This document shows positions 50,583 to 56,653 of a stretch of 64,000 bases of DNA, piece by piece; within the stretch, counting starts at the first letter, position 1, and each line of letters starts with the position of its first letter. The stretch comes from an uncultured Armatimonadetes bacterium (GTDB lineage Bacteria; Armatimonadota; UBA5829; DTJY01), in the NCBI GenBank assembly GCA_963717145.1, contig OY970325.1, positions 3,712,001 through 3,776,000 on the forward strand. The letters run 5' to 3'. Below the pieces are notes generated by a model that did no database searches, had not been told where the DNA came from, and saw only the letters and a list, made by a program, of their open reading frames with translations. Made by a program: the position numbers and the translations under genes.

Positions 50583-50984
50583 ATGATGTCAGGAAGACAC
50601 TCGGGAATCCTCTCACGAGGGTTTAGCATCGAACATACGATCGACCGCACGGAGTCGATTCTTCTCTTTGCCGCCGTCCTCATGCTCCTTTTCGTCATCG
50701 GCATGTGGGCCAAAGGCCTCATCGTATCCGATACGCCTGTCATGAACATGGAGGTCACCGTTCAGCGGGGAGACACCCTCTGGAGTGTCGCTCAGGCTTA
50801 CGGCGATCCGGACGAATACATACTCGCACGCGTCGATAAGCTGGCAAAGGCGAATGGCCTGACACGGGGCGCTGTCCTTGACAAGGGACAGACGCTCGTC
50901 GTGCCCATGACCGGCAAGATGCGCGACCTTGTACTGCGGAGGCACATATGCAAGCAGACCGACTCCGGACAAAGGACCTTATGA
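50583..50984 (+). CDS. TM + LysM domain protein (YneA-like)
   Basis: One TM helix, then VTVQRGDTLWSVA...N.L....L..GQTLVVP. Confidence 0.8.
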   Translation: MMSGRHSGILSRGFSIEHTIDRTESILLFAAVLMLLFVIGMWAKGLIVSDTPVMNMEVTVQRGDTLWSVAQAYGDPDEYILARVDKLAKANGLTRGAVLDKGQTLVVPMTGKMRDLVLRRHICKQTDSGQRTL

Positions 50985-51403
50985 TCGAAACCGCCGCCTG
51001 CCGTCCGGATTCAGGGCCGGGCGGCATCGGCGTTGTCGCGCGGAACGTCCATCCCACGGTGGCAGGCCGGATATGCGAGCAGGCATACGGCGACATCGAC
51101 GAGTTGACGTACCGGGCGGTGCTCAGAGCGCTAGACCTCGGGAAGCGTCTCCGCCTGGGACGAGTCTCCATCCTGTGTCCCGATGAGACGATCGTCAAGC
51201 AGATCAACCGCGAGTTGCCCGTCCCCCAGCAAGGCCGGATTCCCCTGCTCTACGTGAGGGTCAAGTCGCTCATGTACACCTACAGCCACGCGGAGATCAT
51301 CGCTGCCCCCGAGGGCAAAGTGCGCGCCGCCCGCAAGCTCGCGATGGCCGGAAGCAGGATTCCCATCCCCGTCAAGAAAGAGCCCCGCACGCTCTTCACC
51401 TAG
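50948..51403 (+). CDS. RNase HI-fold protein, apparently inactive
   Basis: GPGGIGVV, YRAVLRAL and IVKQIN align with RNase HI, but the catalytic D/E/D positions are not conserved. Confidence 0.65.
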   Translation: MQADRLRTKDLMIETAACRPDSGPGGIGVVARNVHPTVAGRICEQAYGDIDELTYRAVLRALDLGKRLRLGRVSILCPDETIVKQINRELPVPQQGRIPLLYVRVKSLMYTYSHAEIIAAPEGKVRAARKLAMAGSRIPIPVKKEPRTLFT

Positions 51404-51450: not shown

Positions 51451-51933
51451 CTACATCTCAGGCGGCCAATGCGTCTTCCGGCTGCTGGTGAGAATCCCGC
51501 CGGAGCAGCGGAATCTGGGGCCGATCCGGAGTGCGAGCGCCAGGGCGCACACGCAATCATCATGCTGCCCTCGACGCGCCTGCGTGCGGACGTGCCCCGA
51601 GTTGGTGATCTCATACTCGTAGAACTGAAGCTCCTCGATCAGCGGCTCGATGCGCGGATAGACGATCTCCTGATGAGCCAGACGGACGGCGAGGTTGTCG
51701 ATCAACTCGCGCTTTGTCTGGTCGTATGTCGGCGCAACGATCATCTGCACCGATCCGTCGAACGCCGCCGCGAACGTGGCGACATCGACCGCCGCCGCCT
51801 CGGTCTTGCCCCATCGCCGTCCGCACGCCGCCACTCTGACGGGATGGCCGTCGAGCAGCCACTCCCTCTGGCTCGGATGAGGAGTCCAGCCAAAGAGAGC
51901 CGCCGCCAGTTCAATCCTCTTCGCGGGTGTCAT
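51451..51933 (-). CDS. Internally deleted phage terminase large subunit-like protein
   Basis: PHPSQ, CGRRWGKT (Walker A) and VAPTYDQ fused directly to the C-terminal KRELIDNL...HDDCVCALALA. Confidence 0.75.
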   Translation of the reverse strand: MTPAKRIELAAALFGWTPHPSQREWLLDGHPVRVAACGRRWGKTEAAAVDVATFAAAFDGSVQMIVAPTYDQTKRELIDNLAVRLAHQEIVYPRIEPLIEELQFYEYEITNSGHVRTQARRGQHDDCVCALALALRIGPRFRCSGGILTSSRKTHWPPEM

Positions 51934-52300
51934 CGTTCACCTCCGCTATGCGATTGAGCACCGATGTGAAGCCATCGGCCTCGTCGTCGCCGGCGGAATG
52001 CTCGGCGGCGAGGAGTCCGCTGGCCTTGAGGAGATCGATGATCACCTTGTGGCGGACCTTCTCGTCGGCGGTCTTGATCATCGCCTCGAGTTCCTGGGCG
52101 GCCTCGACGACGCGCTTGCTGATGAACCTGATGGCGGTCAGGCGGTTGTCGCGCACGAAATCGCAGAGCGCCTGAGCGAACTGCGGGTCGCGCTTCCACT
52201 CGTCGAGGGTCTCGCGGTTGATCTTGAGCTTGCGAATGACCTCCTCGTCGGTGGACTGGAAGAGCAGAGCCACGGCCCTGCGCTGTTTGGGATCGAGCAT
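51911..52300 (-). CDS. HTH protein resembling a phage terminase small subunit
   Basis: KQRRAVALL...INRETLDEWKRDPQF; overlaps the terminase-like gene. Confidence 0.65.
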   Translation of the reverse strand: MLDPKQRRAVALLFQSTDEEVIRKLKINRETLDEWKRDPQFAQALCDFVRDNRLTAIRFISKRVVEAAQELEAMIKTADEKVRHKVIIDLLKASGLLAAEHSAGDDEADGFTSVLNRIAEVNDDTREED

Positions 52301-52318
52301 GATTGATGCTGCCTTTCT

Positions 52319-52332
52319 CGAACATATGTTCG
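52319..52332. promoter_or_regulatory. LexA (SOS/Cheo) box
   Basis: Perfect CGAACATATGTTCG immediately upstream of the RBS of the gene starting at 52300. Confidence 0.7.
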
Positions 52333-52490
52333 GCCTGATGATGTCTCCTCCGACCTGTCGGAGCCCTCATATTACTAGCACGCCATCCTGCCCCGAAAGA
52401 ATGAACAAACCGTGAACTCTCCCGGAAATCTTCGCCGCAATACATGCTGGTCGAAGAAAACCGCGACTTTCTTTTGCGCAAATATTTAGT

Positions 52491-52507
52491 TTGGCACGGT
52501 TCTTGCA
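52491..52507 (+). promoter_or_regulatory. sigma54 -24/-12 promoter
   Basis: TTGGCACGGTTCTTGCA. Confidence 0.85.
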
Positions 52508-52517
52508 CAATACCCTA

Positions 52518-52584
52518 GTGGACAACAACATCTTTTCTCCTTCCTAATTGCCCTCCGGCGCTTTGCCGGGGGGCTCTCTTTTTT
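52518..52584 (+). ncRNA. Putative sigma54-dependent small RNA, copy 1
   Basis: Promoter, then GACAACAACATCTTTTCTCCTTCCTAATT, then terminator GCCCTCCGGCG-CTT-TGCCGGGGGGC with a U tract. Confidence 0.7.
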
Positions 52585-52605
52585 GAGTGGTCTTCCCCGT
52601 CCCAT

Positions 52606-52867
52606 GTAGTGGCCGTGCCGGCCATGCGGCTCCTACCCGCGCCGTCTAGTCCTGAGTATGCCGGTGAATGACGGCATGTAACGAAGGACGGTGGCATTCC
52701 ACCAGGCCTCTGTGCTCCGCAGGCCGCCCTTCGTTACATGCCGTCATTCACCGGCACACTCAGGGTTGACGGGTTGCTGTCCCCGGCACGCCGGAAGCCG
52801 GCACGGAGGCGCGGCCGCTACGAGGCGATGCGATGGCGGAAGGCCGGCACGGAGGCACGGCCACTAC
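52606..52867. repeat. Composite repeat copy 2 plus an extra family A unit
   Basis: Matches 50167-50390 in direct orientation. Confidence 0.85.
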
Positions 52868-52903
52868 GAGCCGCCCGAGACGTTTTTTTGGCAAATGCGC
52901 GGA

Positions 52904-52920
52904 TTGGCACGATTCTTGCA
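52904..52920 (+). promoter_or_regulatory. sigma54 -24/-12 promoter
   Basis: TTGGCACGATTCTTGCA. Confidence 0.85.
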
Positions 52921-52930
52921 CTATACCCTG

Positions 52931-52996
52931 GTAGACAACAACATCTTTTCTCCTTCCTAATTGCCCTCCGGCGCTTTGCCGGGGGGTTTTCTTTTT
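52931..52996 (+). ncRNA. Putative sigma54-dependent small RNA, copy 2
   Basis: Body and terminator stem identical to copy 1. Confidence 0.7.
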
Positions 52997-53095
52997 GTAT
53001 AACCCCTCAACTTGTGGTACAATCAGCTTTGACTGGGACAGCTACCGGCCGCAGTGCCGGCGTCCGATTTATCCGACGTCGCTGAGGAGCCGTCC

Positions 53096-54052
53096 ATGAA
53101 GAAACGATACCTGCCGTACATCATCGCGCTCATCGCTATCCTGACCATCGCAACGATTCTGATCGCCGACGATTCGCCCTGGATCACCCCCGAGCCGCCC
53201 GAGTTCACCTTCATCGTCATGGGTGACAGCCGGCCCGGGCTGCCCGCTGAGGCCCAGCCGCGGATGTTCAAAGACCTCATCATGCGCGCGGATGCCTACA
53301 ACCCCGGGTTCGTGGTGCATACCGGCGATGCGATCTACGGGTCGTCGAGCCTGGGTAAGGTGCAGGAGCAGTACAAGGATTTCAAGGACGCCGTCAAGCC
53401 GCTGAGGGCGAAGCTCTACCTGACCATCGGCAATCACGAGGTGCAGAACCGGGAGGCGAACCAGACGTTCTTCGAGAAGGAGATCGGCGGGCTGTACTAC
53501 TCGTTCGACCTCAAGGGATCGCATTTCATCGTGCTCGACAGCCATATCGTCGGCGAGGCGGGTCGAATCGCGGGCAAGCAGCTCGACTGGCTCAAGGAAG
53601 ACCTGCGGAAGTCGCGGACCGCCCGGCACAGGTTCGTCTTCATCCACATGCCGCTCTACCCGGTCGACGGCCACATGGGGGCATGCCTCGATGCGCATCC
53701 CGAGGAGCGCGACGCGTTACACAAGCTGTTCATGCTCAACCGGGTCGATACCGTCTTCGTCGGGCACGAGCACTTTTTCGACGAGCAGAAGAGGAATGGC
53801 GTCCGCTACGTCATCAGCGGCGGCGCAGGGGCGCCTGTGTTCCCATCGCTGAAGGGCAAGGGCGACTTCTACCACTTTGTCATCGTGAATGTCAACGGCG
53901 ATTCGGTCAAGATGAAGGGGTTCCGCCCGGCGCAGAGAGGCCGACCGGAAGAGGAGTTCAGGATTCCGCCGGATCAGCCGCGTGTCCGAATGCCGAGTCG
54001 GTGGAAGAACTATGCCGGCGATGGCTTGTTGAAGCGCGCTAACTCGGCATAG
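53096..54052 (+). CDS. Exported calcineurin-like metallophosphoesterase
   Basis: GDSR, TGD, GNHE, FIHMP and GHEH motifs. Confidence 0.9.
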   Translation: MKKRYLPYIIALIAILTIATILIADDSPWITPEPPEFTFIVMGDSRPGLPAEAQPRMFKDLIMRADAYNPGFVVHTGDAIYGSSSLGKVQEQYKDFKDAVKPLRAKLYLTIGNHEVQNREANQTFFEKEIGGLYYSFDLKGSHFIVLDSHIVGEAGRIAGKQLDWLKEDLRKSRTARHRFVFIHMPLYPVDGHMGACLDAHPEERDALHKLFMLNRVDTVFVGHEHFFDEQKRNGVRYVISGGAGAPVFPSLKGKGDFYHFVIVNVNGDSVKMKGFRPAQRGRPEEEFRIPPDQPRVRMPSRWKNYAGDGLLKRANSA

Positions 54053-54154: not shown

Positions 54155-55742
54155 CAGCCTGTCCATGAAATAACCTCTGGCGCAAGGTGCCAGGTATGTA
54201 GTAAAATACGGGTATGAGCAAGCCATACCTTCCTTATCAACCTGACCAGATATTGCTGTTGCCGCCCTTGATGTCGGAGTGGCTGCCCGAGGGACATCTC
54301 GCATACTTTGTGAGCGATGTCGTAGACAGTCTCGACCTTTCCGCGATATACGCCTCATACGAGAAAGAGGCCCGAGGAGCGCCGCCGTTCCATCCGGCAA
54401 TGCTTACAAAGATCATATTCTACGGTTTGTGCCGGGGAGTGTATTCATCTCGAAAGCTCTCCCTGGCCACGTATGAAGATGTAGCCTTCCGGGTGCTTGC
54501 GGCAGGAAATCATCCCGACTTCCGCACGATAAGCGAGTTCAGGAAGAGGCATCTCAAGTCCCTTGCGGACCTGTTTGTGCAAGTGCTCAGGCTATGCGCA
54601 AGCGCCGGGCTTGTGTCGATGAAACACATAGCCATAGACGGAACAAAGCTGCTTGCCAACGCAAGCAAGCACTCCGCCATGAGCTACTCTCGGATGGTCG
54701 AGAAAGAAAAAGAGCTTCAGGCTGAGATCGAGGCGCTCCTTGCGAAGGGTCTTTCTGTGGACGACCAGGAAGACGCGGAATATGGTCTTGACCGCCGAGG
54801 AGACGAACTCCCGGAGGAACTCGCAACCAGAGAGAAGCGGCTCGCCAAGATCAGGGAAGCAAAAGAAGCGCTGGAGCGCGAGGCCAAAGAGCGAGCATCA
54901 GCCGAAGAAGCGATGCGAGCCCAAGAGAAGGCGGAGCAGGAAGCATCCGGGAAGAAGCCTCGCGGCAGAGAGCCGGGGCCCGTAAAGACAGAGCCGGAAG
55001 GGAAGGCACAGCGGAACTTCACAGACCCGGAAAGCCGGATAATGAAGGACGCAAAGAAAGCCTTCGTGCAGGCATACAACGGACAAGCTGCGGTAGACGC
55101 AGATCATCAGATTGTAGTGGCGTGTGATCTCACGAACCAGGCAGCGGACTCACCGCATCTTAGTGACATGATCGAGGCAATCAAGGAGAACACCGGAAAG
55201 AAACCGGAAGAACTATCCGCCGATGCCGGATACTTCAGCAGCGACAACATAGAGATGGTCGAGCAGCAAGGGATCGACGCTTATATACCGCCTGACAGAC
55301 AACGTCATGGCAAAGAGCCGACGGCGCCTTCCTGCCTTGATCCGGCAAAGCAATCCGCCGCAGATCGCCAGAGAGCAAAGCTCTTGACTCCTCTTGGCCG
55401 AAAGATCTACGGGAGGCGGAAGGAGACGGTAGAGCCGGTGTTCGGCCAGATCAAGAGCGCACGGAACTTCCGAGGCTTCCTACTCCGAGGCCTTGCGAAA
55501 GCGAAGTCGGAGTGGACGCTTGCGTGTCTTGGGCACAACATGCTGAAGCTATACCGATACGGCGACCGGAAATCGATCTTCGATACGTAGATATATGACC
55601 TGGATCAGGCTGATTATCAAGGTACAAGGGGTCTTTACAGACCCTCGCCGGAAATCCGGCGAAAAACACTATCGAACAGCAGCCAGCGCGACCCCGCAGA
55701 TGGGAAACTCACCCACATAGCGGGGAATTCTCAGACAGGCTG
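54155..55742 (+). mobile_element. IS1182 family element
   Basis: Ends CAGCCTGTC / GACAGGCTG flanked by CTAG duplication (54151-54154, 55743-55746). Confidence 0.9.
54214..55590 (+). CDS. IS1182 family transposase
   Basis: LPEGHLA, PDFRTISEFR, IDGTK, TDPESRIM, ADAGY and VEPVFGQIK motifs. Confidence 0.95.
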   Translation: MSKPYLPYQPDQILLLPPLMSEWLPEGHLAYFVSDVVDSLDLSAIYASYEKEARGAPPFHPAMLTKIIFYGLCRGVYSSRKLSLATYEDVAFRVLAAGNHPDFRTISEFRKRHLKSLADLFVQVLRLCASAGLVSMKHIAIDGTKLLANASKHSAMSYSRMVEKEKELQAEIEALLAKGLSVDDQEDAEYGLDRRGDELPEELATREKRLAKIREAKEALEREAKERASAEEAMRAQEKAEQEASGKKPRGREPGPVKTEPEGKAQRNFTDPESRIMKDAKKAFVQAYNGQAAVDADHQIVVACDLTNQAADSPHLSDMIEAIKENTGKKPEELSADAGYFSSDNIEMVEQQGIDAYIPPDRQRHGKEPTAPSCLDPAKQSAADRQRAKLLTPLGRKIYGRRKETVEPVFGQIKSARNFRGFLLRGLAKAKSEWTLACLGHNMLKLYRYGDRKSIFDT

Positions 55743-56653
55743 CTAGGCGACGGCATTCGCTGCAAGTCTTTCCGCCGCGCTCTCGCTGAGATCGTAACGT
55801 CGGATTCCGCGGTCTTGGATATTGGTGCCGGTACCGGAATACTGAGTATCTTCGCGGCACAGTCGGGAGCCCGAGTGGTGTACGCCGTGGAGAGGACCAA
55901 GACGGCCGAGCTTGCCCGGCGCATCGTCTCGGAGAATGGCCTATCTGACCGCATACAGATATTCCAGGATGACATGGAAAACGTCGAGTTGCCTGAGAAG
56001 GTCGACGTGATAGTCTCCGAGTGGCTTGGCGGCTACGGGATAGATGAGAACCTCCTGCCCGTGATAGTCCAGGCTAGAGATCGATGGCTCAAGCCTGGTG
56101 GCAGCATGATACCCAGGCATGTTTCGTCCTGGATAGCCCCGGCCTACGATGAACTCCTCGACCAGGATGACGGCTTCTGGAGGCAGCACCCGTATGGCGT
56201 GAATCTCGCTGCCATCAGTGACGTCACCTCGAGCCAGTTGCTGTGGTGCCGCAACAACGTGAAGGAAGAGCACCTCTTGGCGGATGCGCGGCAGATGTGG
56301 GAGATCGACCCCGCCTCGATCACTCATGGTCAGGCGACCGACGTCTTCCAGGCTGAACTGAGCTTTTCCTGCCGCCGAAGTGGGCGCTGTAATGCGTTGG
56401 CCGCGTGGTTCGAGGCTTGCCTGAGTGACGGGAACATCCTGTCGAACCGTCCCTCAGAGCAGTACACGCACTGGGGGCGCTGGATCTTCCCCATCGGAGC
56501 ATGTCTGGATGTGGACGAGGGCTCGACTATCGCTGTCTCGTTCCGTGTGGAACCAGGGGGAACAGGGCAGTCGACGGCGACATGGCGGGTCAACCTCGGC
56601 GACTACTCATTCTCCTCGCAGGATTCGACGAGTCTCACCGGATGACGCGCTGA

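Follow-up and report, generated by a model that had tools for sequence, protein, structure and literature searches.

Several bacterial small RNAs (sRNAs) are transcribed from sigma-54 promoters. In Vibrio, the redundant, multicopy sRNAs Qrr1-5 (LuxO) are expressed from such promoters under the control of an NtrC-type response regulator and depend on Hfq. In Myxococcus, the sRNA Pxr has a sigma-54-type promoter, is tandem-duplicated in some relatives and adjoins the activator gene nla19. In Armatimonadota, a phylum with very few cultured members, our literature searches found no regulatory RNA described. Here, we analyzed a tandem pair of putative sRNA genes in a 64,000-nt stretch of DNA (hereafter the window; positions 3,712,001 to 3,776,000 of contig OY970325.1) from an uncultured Armatimonadetes bacterium, whose genome is a single contig of 5.37 Mb with 60.6% G+C. 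Judging from the sequence evidence as a whole, we find it fairly probable that these are sigma-54-driven genes for trans-acting sRNAs of about 66 nt, belonging to one Armatimonadota class and repressing the mRNAs of PEP-CTERM proteins.

The units of this pair resemble Qrr in being multicopy sRNAs behind sigma-54 promoters. Qrr genes differ in being dispersed and in coding for RNAs of about 100 nt that carry four stem-loops and whose conserved region is not known to be complementary to the Shine-Dalgarno (SD) sequence; phylum and targets also differ, and Rfam gave no Qrr match on the window units. With Pxr they share a sigma-54-type promoter and tandem copies, but no gene for an enhancer-binding protein (EBP) adjoins any of our loci and there is no Rfam match. 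The Streptococcus csRNAs of the CiaRH regulon likewise come as several near-alike sRNAs per genome, with an unpaired region complementary to SD and start codon; CAU is present in 53/61 csRNAs and their control lies with a two-component response regulator, to which we liken the control proposed here (PMC3091779). Unlike the window sRNAs, csRNAs have sigma-70/CiaR promoters, Firmicutes hosts and two flanking stem-loops instead of one terminator. Their targets are competence and other genes, and they have no sequence or Rfam relationship to the window sRNAs. For the sigma-54 regulome of Desulfovibrio vulgaris, four non-coding RNAs (ncRNAs) are described, as is a response regulator, DVU0679, that binds upstream of an sRNA, so that there too ncRNAs belong to sigma-54/EBP regulons (PMC4641369, PMC3333781). 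Those ncRNAs lie downstream of their regulators, which sets them apart from the window sRNAs. Finally, sigma-54-driven PEP-CTERM genes are a feature shared with the PrsK/PrsR system, which differs in being purely transcriptional (PMC1569441). Our searches of the literature found no sRNA layer described for PEP-CTERM/exosortase control and no publication on this sRNA family. The kind of mechanism, a sigma-54-driven multicopy anti-SD sRNA, is already known, and the family itself is new.

Both units (unit 1, 52492-52584; unit 2, 52905-52996; + strand) consist of a promoter, a CU-rich body and an intrinsic terminator. An earlier interpretation made from the letters of the window (the sequence-only reading) had placed them 413 bp apart and given each a sigma-54 promoter. 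The start-to-start distance is indeed 413 bp, and we found an exact -24/-12 element at both units, TGGCACGGTTCTTGCA at 52492-52507 (GG at -25/-24, GC at -13/-12) and TGGCACGATTCTTGCA at 52905-52920. In the 64-kb window, the pattern TGGCACG-N4-TTGCA matches these two promoters only (0.01 matches expected; at least two in 0/100 shuffles), and a simple promoter/terminator scan of 52300-53150 called no sigma-70-like promoter. Taking the C of the GC element as -12, we again predict transcription start sites at G52518 and G52931, the positions proposed before. The predicted RNAs, with their starts inferred from the promoters, would thus be about 66 nt long (sRNA 1, 52518-52584; sRNA 2, 52931-52996; both on the + strand), an unstructured, seed-bearing 5' half being followed by the terminator.

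The stretches 52521-52574 and 52934-52987 do not differ at a single position, which bears out the claim of an identical body and stem; they hold GACAACAACATCTTTTCTCCTTCCTAATT and the hairpin GCCCTCCGGC-GCTTT-GCCGGGGGG, after which comes the T tract. Over 90 nt the units are 93% identical (BLAST, E 5.6e-33). Four changes are found between promoter and terminator, each in the promoter spacer or near the start, and the others are in the tail; the substitutions had been said to fall in just these places. The seed of sRNA 1, CATCTTTTCTCCTTCC (52529-52544; anti-AUG 52529-52531, anti-SD 52537-52544), is the exact reverse complement of GGAAGGAGAAAAGATG, in agreement with its description as the complement of a ribosome-binding site (RBS) plus start codon; that of sRNA 2 lies at 52942-52957. 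The terminator of sRNA 1 occupies 52550-52584 (stem-loop 52550-52574, T tract 52575-52584), and that of sRNA 2 has its stem-loop at 52963-52987 and its T tract up to 52996. In the scan of 52300-53150, the + strand terminators called were exactly these two hairpins, each with its T tract. Folded from the predicted starts, the RNAs reach -21 to -23 kcal/mol, with a 10-bp terminator stem and the first ~32 nt, including the seed, unpaired, and the fold energy of either RNA was equalled by at most 1/200 shuffles.

By using a sequence model (R1) made of 53 non-identical homologues (alignment A3), which includes the promoter and was built after a promoter regular expression, we found five copies of the sRNA gene in this genome, at 43.6-60.2 bits, the next match reaching 25.3 bits. 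BLAST alone undercounts the family, with two copies in its own genome against five with R1. In addition to the window pair, R1 identified a second tandem pair 196 bp apart (contig 4125874 and 4126070, - strand) and a diverged fifth copy (contig 4341232, + strand). Invariant among the five paralogues are the promoter elements and ACATCT(N)TTTCTCC only; their terminators differ in sequence and all fold. The copy number and the conservation in related genomes, which the sequence-only reading had named as its check, could be followed in 53 genomes of the same Armatimonadota class: promoter, seed and terminator are conserved in 40/53 of them (88 matches at E<=1e-7), including 28/38 high-quality genomes. 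Counted by family and excluding its own genome, the sRNA is present in 7/10, 6/6, 5/6, 2/2 and 19/28 genomes, in one to five copies per genome, as a rule several, and tandem arrays of two or three occur in 13 of the 40 positive genomes. Across an even sample of 151 phylum genomes, strong full-length R1 matches were confined to that class, and in 137 genomes outside it none exceeded 30 bits (best 29.6, mostly the promoter part alone). When one genome for each of 185,579 species was scanned for the exact pattern, 38 stretches were returned, 22 of them in Armatimonadota-titled records, 13 in unlabelled metagenome-assembled genomes and 3 in other phyla; two of these last three were inspected, and both had neither a terminator nor the family body beyond the searched pattern. 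The Rfam check left the novelty of the family intact, as the window gave no match at the gathering threshold of any Rfam 15 family and 14 related loci gave no relevant one. Weak, unrelated Rfam matches on the units at E<=10 were set aside (RsaOG, 25.4 bits with 50 needed; mmgR, 19.2 bits with 41 needed), as was an E-value match of mir-H7 on the repeat palindrome between the units, far under its threshold.

Within the alignment, TGGCAC and TTGC are invariant in 53/53 homologues and ATCTTTTCTCCTTC is at least 90% conserved. The anti-AUG part of the seed holds for most of the family but not for all of it, CAU lying 5-7 nt upstream of CUCC in 42/53 members. Terminator sequences vary with their pairing kept, including double changes at 5/9 terminator pairs, and we found no conserved open reading frame (ORF) at the sRNA loci on either strand, in the units or in the relatives. 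The RNAs have an A-rich 5' end and U-rich tracts, and three forms can be told apart. The short form, seed plus terminator, belongs to the family of genomes that includes the window. In the long form (100-120 nt), found in two sister families, AAAGUGUUGUGGC comes after the seed and hardly varies; a variable hairpin and then a terminator with co-varying pairs complete the RNA. Directly after the seed, AAAGUGUUGUGG is invariant in this form, and a second invariant stretch, GUGUUGUGG, complements the leader CCACAACAC of PEP-CTERM genes. In a third form, seen in another group, a hairpin closed by GGAA...UUCUGUC encloses the seed. A conserved neighbour gene was sought by clustering 1655 flanking ORFs, which revealed clade-local synteny only (phosphofructokinase, CAAX protease, GT2) and nothing class-wide. 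Among these neighbours, a same-strand phosphofructokinase gene comes next after the sRNA terminator in seven genomes (L007, L008, L012, L019, L021, L044, L055), and in one relative a c-di-GMP-I riboswitch (66 bits; L005:1218-1312, - strand) lies ~200 nt from the sRNA gene.

The machinery for such promoters is encoded, since the rpoN gene that the sequence-only reading wanted to see is present in two copies. Only three true NtrC-type EBPs were found, all of them receiver-AAA+ proteins (Sigma54_activat 241-249 bits). Hfq is also encoded (101 bits), and the sRNAs end in Rho-independent terminators with a U tail. EBP1 (contig ~3.048 Mb), which has an AtoS-like kinase upstream, ends right past its AAA+ domain, without helix-turn-helix (HTH), and is a candidate activator of the sRNA genes despite having no DNA-binding domain. 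An attempt to name the activator with NCBIfam yielded generic NtrC/AtoC-like assignments only for the three EBPs and AtoS-like for the kinase, no named equivalog cut-off being reached. The cut-offs that define a PrsK/PrsR regulon (TIGR02915, TIGR02916) were not attained either, the kinase beside EBP1 scoring 106.9 with 300 needed. Across the class, rpoN scores over the cut-off in 46/53 genomes and in 40/40 sRNA-positive ones; the sRNA was found in 0/7 rpoN-less genomes, and six genomes have rpoN without the sRNA. The promoter-free body motif was not found in five rpoN-less genomes.

We then looked at what else lies behind this promoter class. The genome holds 26 promoters of the type TGGCA[CT]G-N4-TTGCA, five at the sRNA genes and 21 elsewhere. 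Behind the remaining TTGCA-class promoters, 13 first ORFs were considered; 11 of them end in VPEP, a membrane helix and RRR, which is the PEP-CTERM signal; the other two encode a subtilase and an unknown protein. Pfam PF07589 picks up 4/13 of these ORFs at E<=1e-3, and the genome has one exosortase gene. These 11 PEP-CTERM ORFs fit the link between sigma-54 and PEP-CTERM proteins drawn in earlier reports: in Proteobacteria, sigma-54 promoters precede PEP-CTERM genes and an NtrC-type regulator controls them (PMC1569441), and in Desulfovibrio, DVUA0057 binds PEP-CTERM genes (PMC3333781).

Several other observations concern sigma-54 promoters of this genome and their surroundings. A palindrome-like motif, possibly a regulator or DNA-bending site, stands upstream of unit 1 (TTTTGCGCAAAT, 52472-52483, + strand, centre ~-40) and of unit 2 (TTTTTGGCAAAT, 52885-52896, + strand). 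The sequence-only reading was right about its presence at both units, but the motif is not a family hallmark, only 13/53 members having this type; it also occurs at 2/21 other sigma-54 promoters of this genome, compared to 0.9% of random 45-mers. It is recurrent, yet not family-defining. Another palindrome, GGTA-N4-6-TACC (e.g. TTGCAGGTAATACTACCTGG), lies between -12 and +1 in many promoters of the own family, and in the sister families CCTGG(Y)A-N5-TGCCGGG abuts the -24 element on its upstream side. One or the other was seen among L004, L009, L015, L072, L073 and contig 4067746 and 3605552, and either is a candidate operator. Sigma-54 promoters of a second type, TGGCAC-N5-ATTGCT, cluster at contig 244080-269500 (L091, L092, L100), where flagellar genes (FlgB-type rod protein, FliN) lie along with the third EBP and the second rpoN; this hints at two sigma-54 paralogues, each with its own promoter flavour and regulon. 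The pair L074/L075 (contig 1523043, + strand, and 3591340, - strand), where the first plausible start is 183 and 344 nt downstream of the promoter, has a CU-rich body unlike that of the family, GUGAUU(A/C)CAAGAGUUUUCUUCUU...CGUGGCAA..., with terminators at the end, and is probably another sRNA family. Strong sigma-54 promoters without a plausible ORF within 450 nt were further noted at L095 (4067746, - strand), L096 (3605552, - strand) and L076 (2151822, + strand), the last with a CUCCUUCC tract and a terminator behind the promoter.

Candidate targets were scored in a set of 4258 non-overlapping ORFs obtained by a crude greedy call, comprising 61 PEP-CTERM ORFs and 4197 others; the C-terminal regular expression finds 62 PEP-CTERM ORFs in the genome. 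When 23,616 candidate start regions were ranked by duplexfold without restriction, long looped duplexes on doubtful ORFs prevailed, and a register-anchored score was used instead. This score compares the 8-nt SD part and the 5-nt spacer of each start region with a perfect target of the window sRNA, allowing G-U pairs and a shift of +/-1. At least 12/13 was reached by 12/61 PEP-CTERM ORFs and by 16/4197 others (Fisher p 6e-16), and a duplex energy at or below -18 kcal/mol by 17/61 and 130/4197, respectively. When the comparison was limited to ORFs matching the SD part at 7/8 positions or more, the spacer was fully complementary in 12/19 PEP-CTERM ORFs compared to 13/332 others. Moreover, a score of at least 11 was found for 19/50 PEP-CTERM genes without a sigma-54 promoter and for 0/11 with one (p 0.0125). 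Of the 16 'other' matches, one falls on the strand antisense to an sRNA gene, and two seem to belong with the same families of genes, one being a truncated paralogue within the same tandem cluster and the other resembling a PEP-CTERM protein. Pfam showed no theme among the 10 top sites, the PEP-CTERM theme being visible from the C-termini, and unrelated genes coding for an ABC ATPase, an LVIVD-repeat protein and a radical-SAM protein are among the top-scoring sites. Tandem genes for PEP-CTERM proteins with an FGE-sulfatase domain (contig 1019-1024 kb) carry the leader CCACAACACTTTGGAGGGAAAAGGATG, a sequence complementary to the invariant seed together with the AAAGUGUUGUGG extension found in the longer sister-family sRNAs. 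Inside the window itself, a gene for a 208-aa secreted-looking protein (window 2901 onward, contig 3714901, + strand) has an RBS region, GGAAAGGAGAAAAAGATG, that fits the seed at 12/13 and makes it a possible in-window target.

A similar picture emerged across the class. In its 53 genomes we counted 76 occurrences of the pattern CACAACAC-N2-10-GGAG-N4-10-ATG, compared to 8 of the reversed control. We examined 47 instances with their sequence, of which 13 were the antisense strand of sRNA genes; behind the remaining ones stood 18 complete ORFs of at least 150 aa, nine of them PEP-CTERM, four of the same FGE family and five unrelated. Cognate sRNA-leader duplexes are bipartite (GUGUUGUGG:CCACAACAC and CAUCUUUUCUCC:GGAGAAAAGAUG) and reach -28 to -41 kcal/mol, an energy matched by 0/300 shuffles in 9/13 pairs. 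In G023 and G018, a non-FGE PEP-CTERM gene with an ACAACAC leader pairs with the sRNA of its own genome at -32 and -35 kcal/mol, again with 0/300 shuffles. Most leader-bearing PEP-CTERM/FGE genes have TTGACA-type, sigma-70-like promoters. In the 5' untranslated region of FGE-PEP-CTERM genes, mostly behind TTGACA-type promoters, we also noticed a conserved hairpin, AAGCGG(R)CAnnAGAnnCCGCA, just upstream of CACAACAC (L117, L143, L148, L149, L152, L146, L147). Rfam returned no match in five target loci that include it, and it is possibly a processing, stability or protein-binding element. At four further loci (L123, L142, L144, L145), sRNA-like copies with seed, GUGUUGUGG and terminator lie opposite the pattern strand without a canonical -24/-12 promoter; they are possibly paralogues under another promoter, or decaying.

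These results would fit the following mechanism. RNA polymerase with sigma-54 would bind the -24/-12 promoter seen in the sequence, whose firing would require the phosphorylated form of one of the three NtrC-type response-regulator activators, and the intrinsic terminator would end transcription. The single-stranded CU-rich seed CAUCUUUU(U)CUCCUUCC would then pair with the SD, spacer and AUG of a target mRNA and block ribosome binding, probably with Hfq, tandem copies raising the sRNA dose. The best-supported targets would be PEP-CTERM (exosortase-sorted) mRNAs without a sigma-54 promoter, including the paralogous FGE-sulfatase-domain family. The parts of this proposal are not equally secure. 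That the units represent a real sigma-54-driven sRNA family is very likely, and action through SD/AUG pairing is likely; that PEP-CTERM mRNAs are the main targets is a reading we lean towards only slightly. With this predicted mRNA class, the 'multicopy translational repressor' of the sequence-only reading would take a concrete form.

Several points weigh against this proposal. A search for RNA sequencing runs of the locus listed none. Since R1 includes the promoter, the co-occurrence of rpoN and sRNA is partly built in by the way of counting. No EBP gene lies beside an sRNA gene, a tblastn comparison of the three EBPs with all fetched loci giving one receiver-domain match, and none of the three reaches the PrsR cut-off (400-407 bits with 502.6 needed). 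The ORFs come from a greedy call with the best of several starts taken per ORF, the rule being identical for both groups. PEP-CTERM paralogues partly share ribosome-binding regions by descent, so that the enrichment statistics overstate independence; as we read the listed sites, the 12 top PEP-CTERM matches correspond to about 10 loci. The seed itself is near a generic anti-SD. When an FGE-PEP-CTERM protein was used as query, a homologue was found in one of five further sRNA-bearing genomes and the family was not found in the other four (G023, G029, G012, G033), so it is not a universal target. The window form of the sRNA lacks the GUGUUGUGG helix and its predicted targets nevertheless keep CCACAACAC, which must therefore have another role too. 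Finally, the one candidate compensatory change, between a GUGUUAUGG sRNA and an AUAACAC PEP-CTERM leader (G190), does not discriminate: a non-cognate sRNA pairs with that leader at least as well, and the pair offers no compensatory proof.

Some of these points would also be expected if the family were real and sigma-54-driven but acted as a general anti-SD regulator, or had other main targets, the PEP-CTERM enrichment then reflecting shared strong, A-rich RBS regions. The conserved core is essentially an anti-SD plus a U-rich spacer, the ABC ATPase, LVIVD-repeat and radical-SAM genes figure among the top sites, the FGE family is missing from four of the five further genomes and tandem paralogues inflate the counts. 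We nevertheless regard this explanation as unlikely, for the spacer match is enriched at equal SD match (the 12/19 against 13/332 given above), the non-SD helix GUGUUGUGG:CCACAACAC recurs before PEP-CTERM genes in several genera, and the sigma-54-driven PEP-CTERM genes are spared (0/11). Far less probable is an RNA whose pyrimidine-rich tract and A-rich 5' end sequester a protein such as Hfq without any mRNA pairing. CrcZ titrates an RNA-binding protein in this way; the A-rich 5' end, the U-rich tracts, the encoded Hfq and the multicopy arrays would suit such a role. Yet each RNA has a single tract of this kind, the register of CAU, 5-7 nt spacer and CUCC is kept in 42/53 members, and the long bipartite complementarity to leaders would be superfluous for binding a protein.

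The same-strand metallophosphoesterase gene (53097-54052), which starts ~100 nt past the end of unit 2, raises the question of a cis-acting leader or attenuator, in which the promoter would serve the downstream gene and the hairpin would be a conditional terminator. The same arrangement could be read into the phosphofructokinase gene that follows in seven genomes, but downstream genes vary across the class, inner units of arrays are followed by another promoter, and the strong terminators have long U tracts, an alternative anti-terminator fold not being conserved; we consider an attenuator slightly more improbable still than titration. It is even harder to credit that the units are not functional RNAs, be it that they are antisense remnants of PEP-CTERM gene starts in decay or that a small ORF with a strong RBS lies on the minus strand. 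The complement of the seed does resemble an ideal RBS plus ATG, and a 54-codon ORF opens there in unit 1 (52367-52531, - strand). However, this frame is reduced to 7 codons in unit 2 and to 5-50 unrelated codons in relatives, making it a chance ORF outside the element, whereas the + strand promoter is invariant and the terminator pairing kept in 53 homologues, and the family is maintained in 40 genomes. A family of sigma-54-driven sRNAs that probably repress PEP-CTERM mRNAs is the interpretation we retain.

The DNA around the pair is a stretch rich in mobile elements. Between the units (52590-52880), it consists of inserted repeats, namely a palindromic element of ~130 bp (~52642-52774) and a short repeat (~52839-52874). 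These repeats in the 290-bp inter-unit DNA have about 160 and about 280 BLAST matches in the genome, and the previous description of this segment as unrelated REP (repetitive extragenic palindromic) DNA is therefore right, genome-wide repeats filling it. Further genes near the pair are an RVT_3 (RNase H-like) ORF at window 50948-51403 (+ strand), a gene for a small HTH protein at 51911-52300 (- strand), a DDE transposase gene at 54214-55590 (+ strand) and a gene for a PRMT-like arginine methyltransferase at 55815-56645 (+ strand).

What makes this case of interest is the link to PEP-CTERM proteins, the phylum and the clean multicopy architecture, in a family that is easy to recognise and that comes with a likely sigma factor and a concrete target class. 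An earlier report links PEP-CTERM/exosortase proteins to exopolysaccharide, flocs and biofilms (PMC1569441). In the bacterium studied here, the same sigma-54 promoter class would drive one set of PEP-CTERM genes by transcriptional induction, and a second set would be silenced through the sRNA arrays by bipartite pairing to the leader CCACAACAC ... GGAG ... AUG; with one set induced and the other silenced, the circuit would swap surface-protein sets. We put forward only tentatively, on these genomic grounds, that the family may be the post-transcriptional arm of the PEP-CTERM/exosortase system and provide a switch of the cell-surface proteome. If this is true, there may be an RNA layer in the control of PEP-CTERM/exosortase surface proteins, and the sRNAs would be the first sRNA family, with the first sRNA-target network, described for Armatimonadota.

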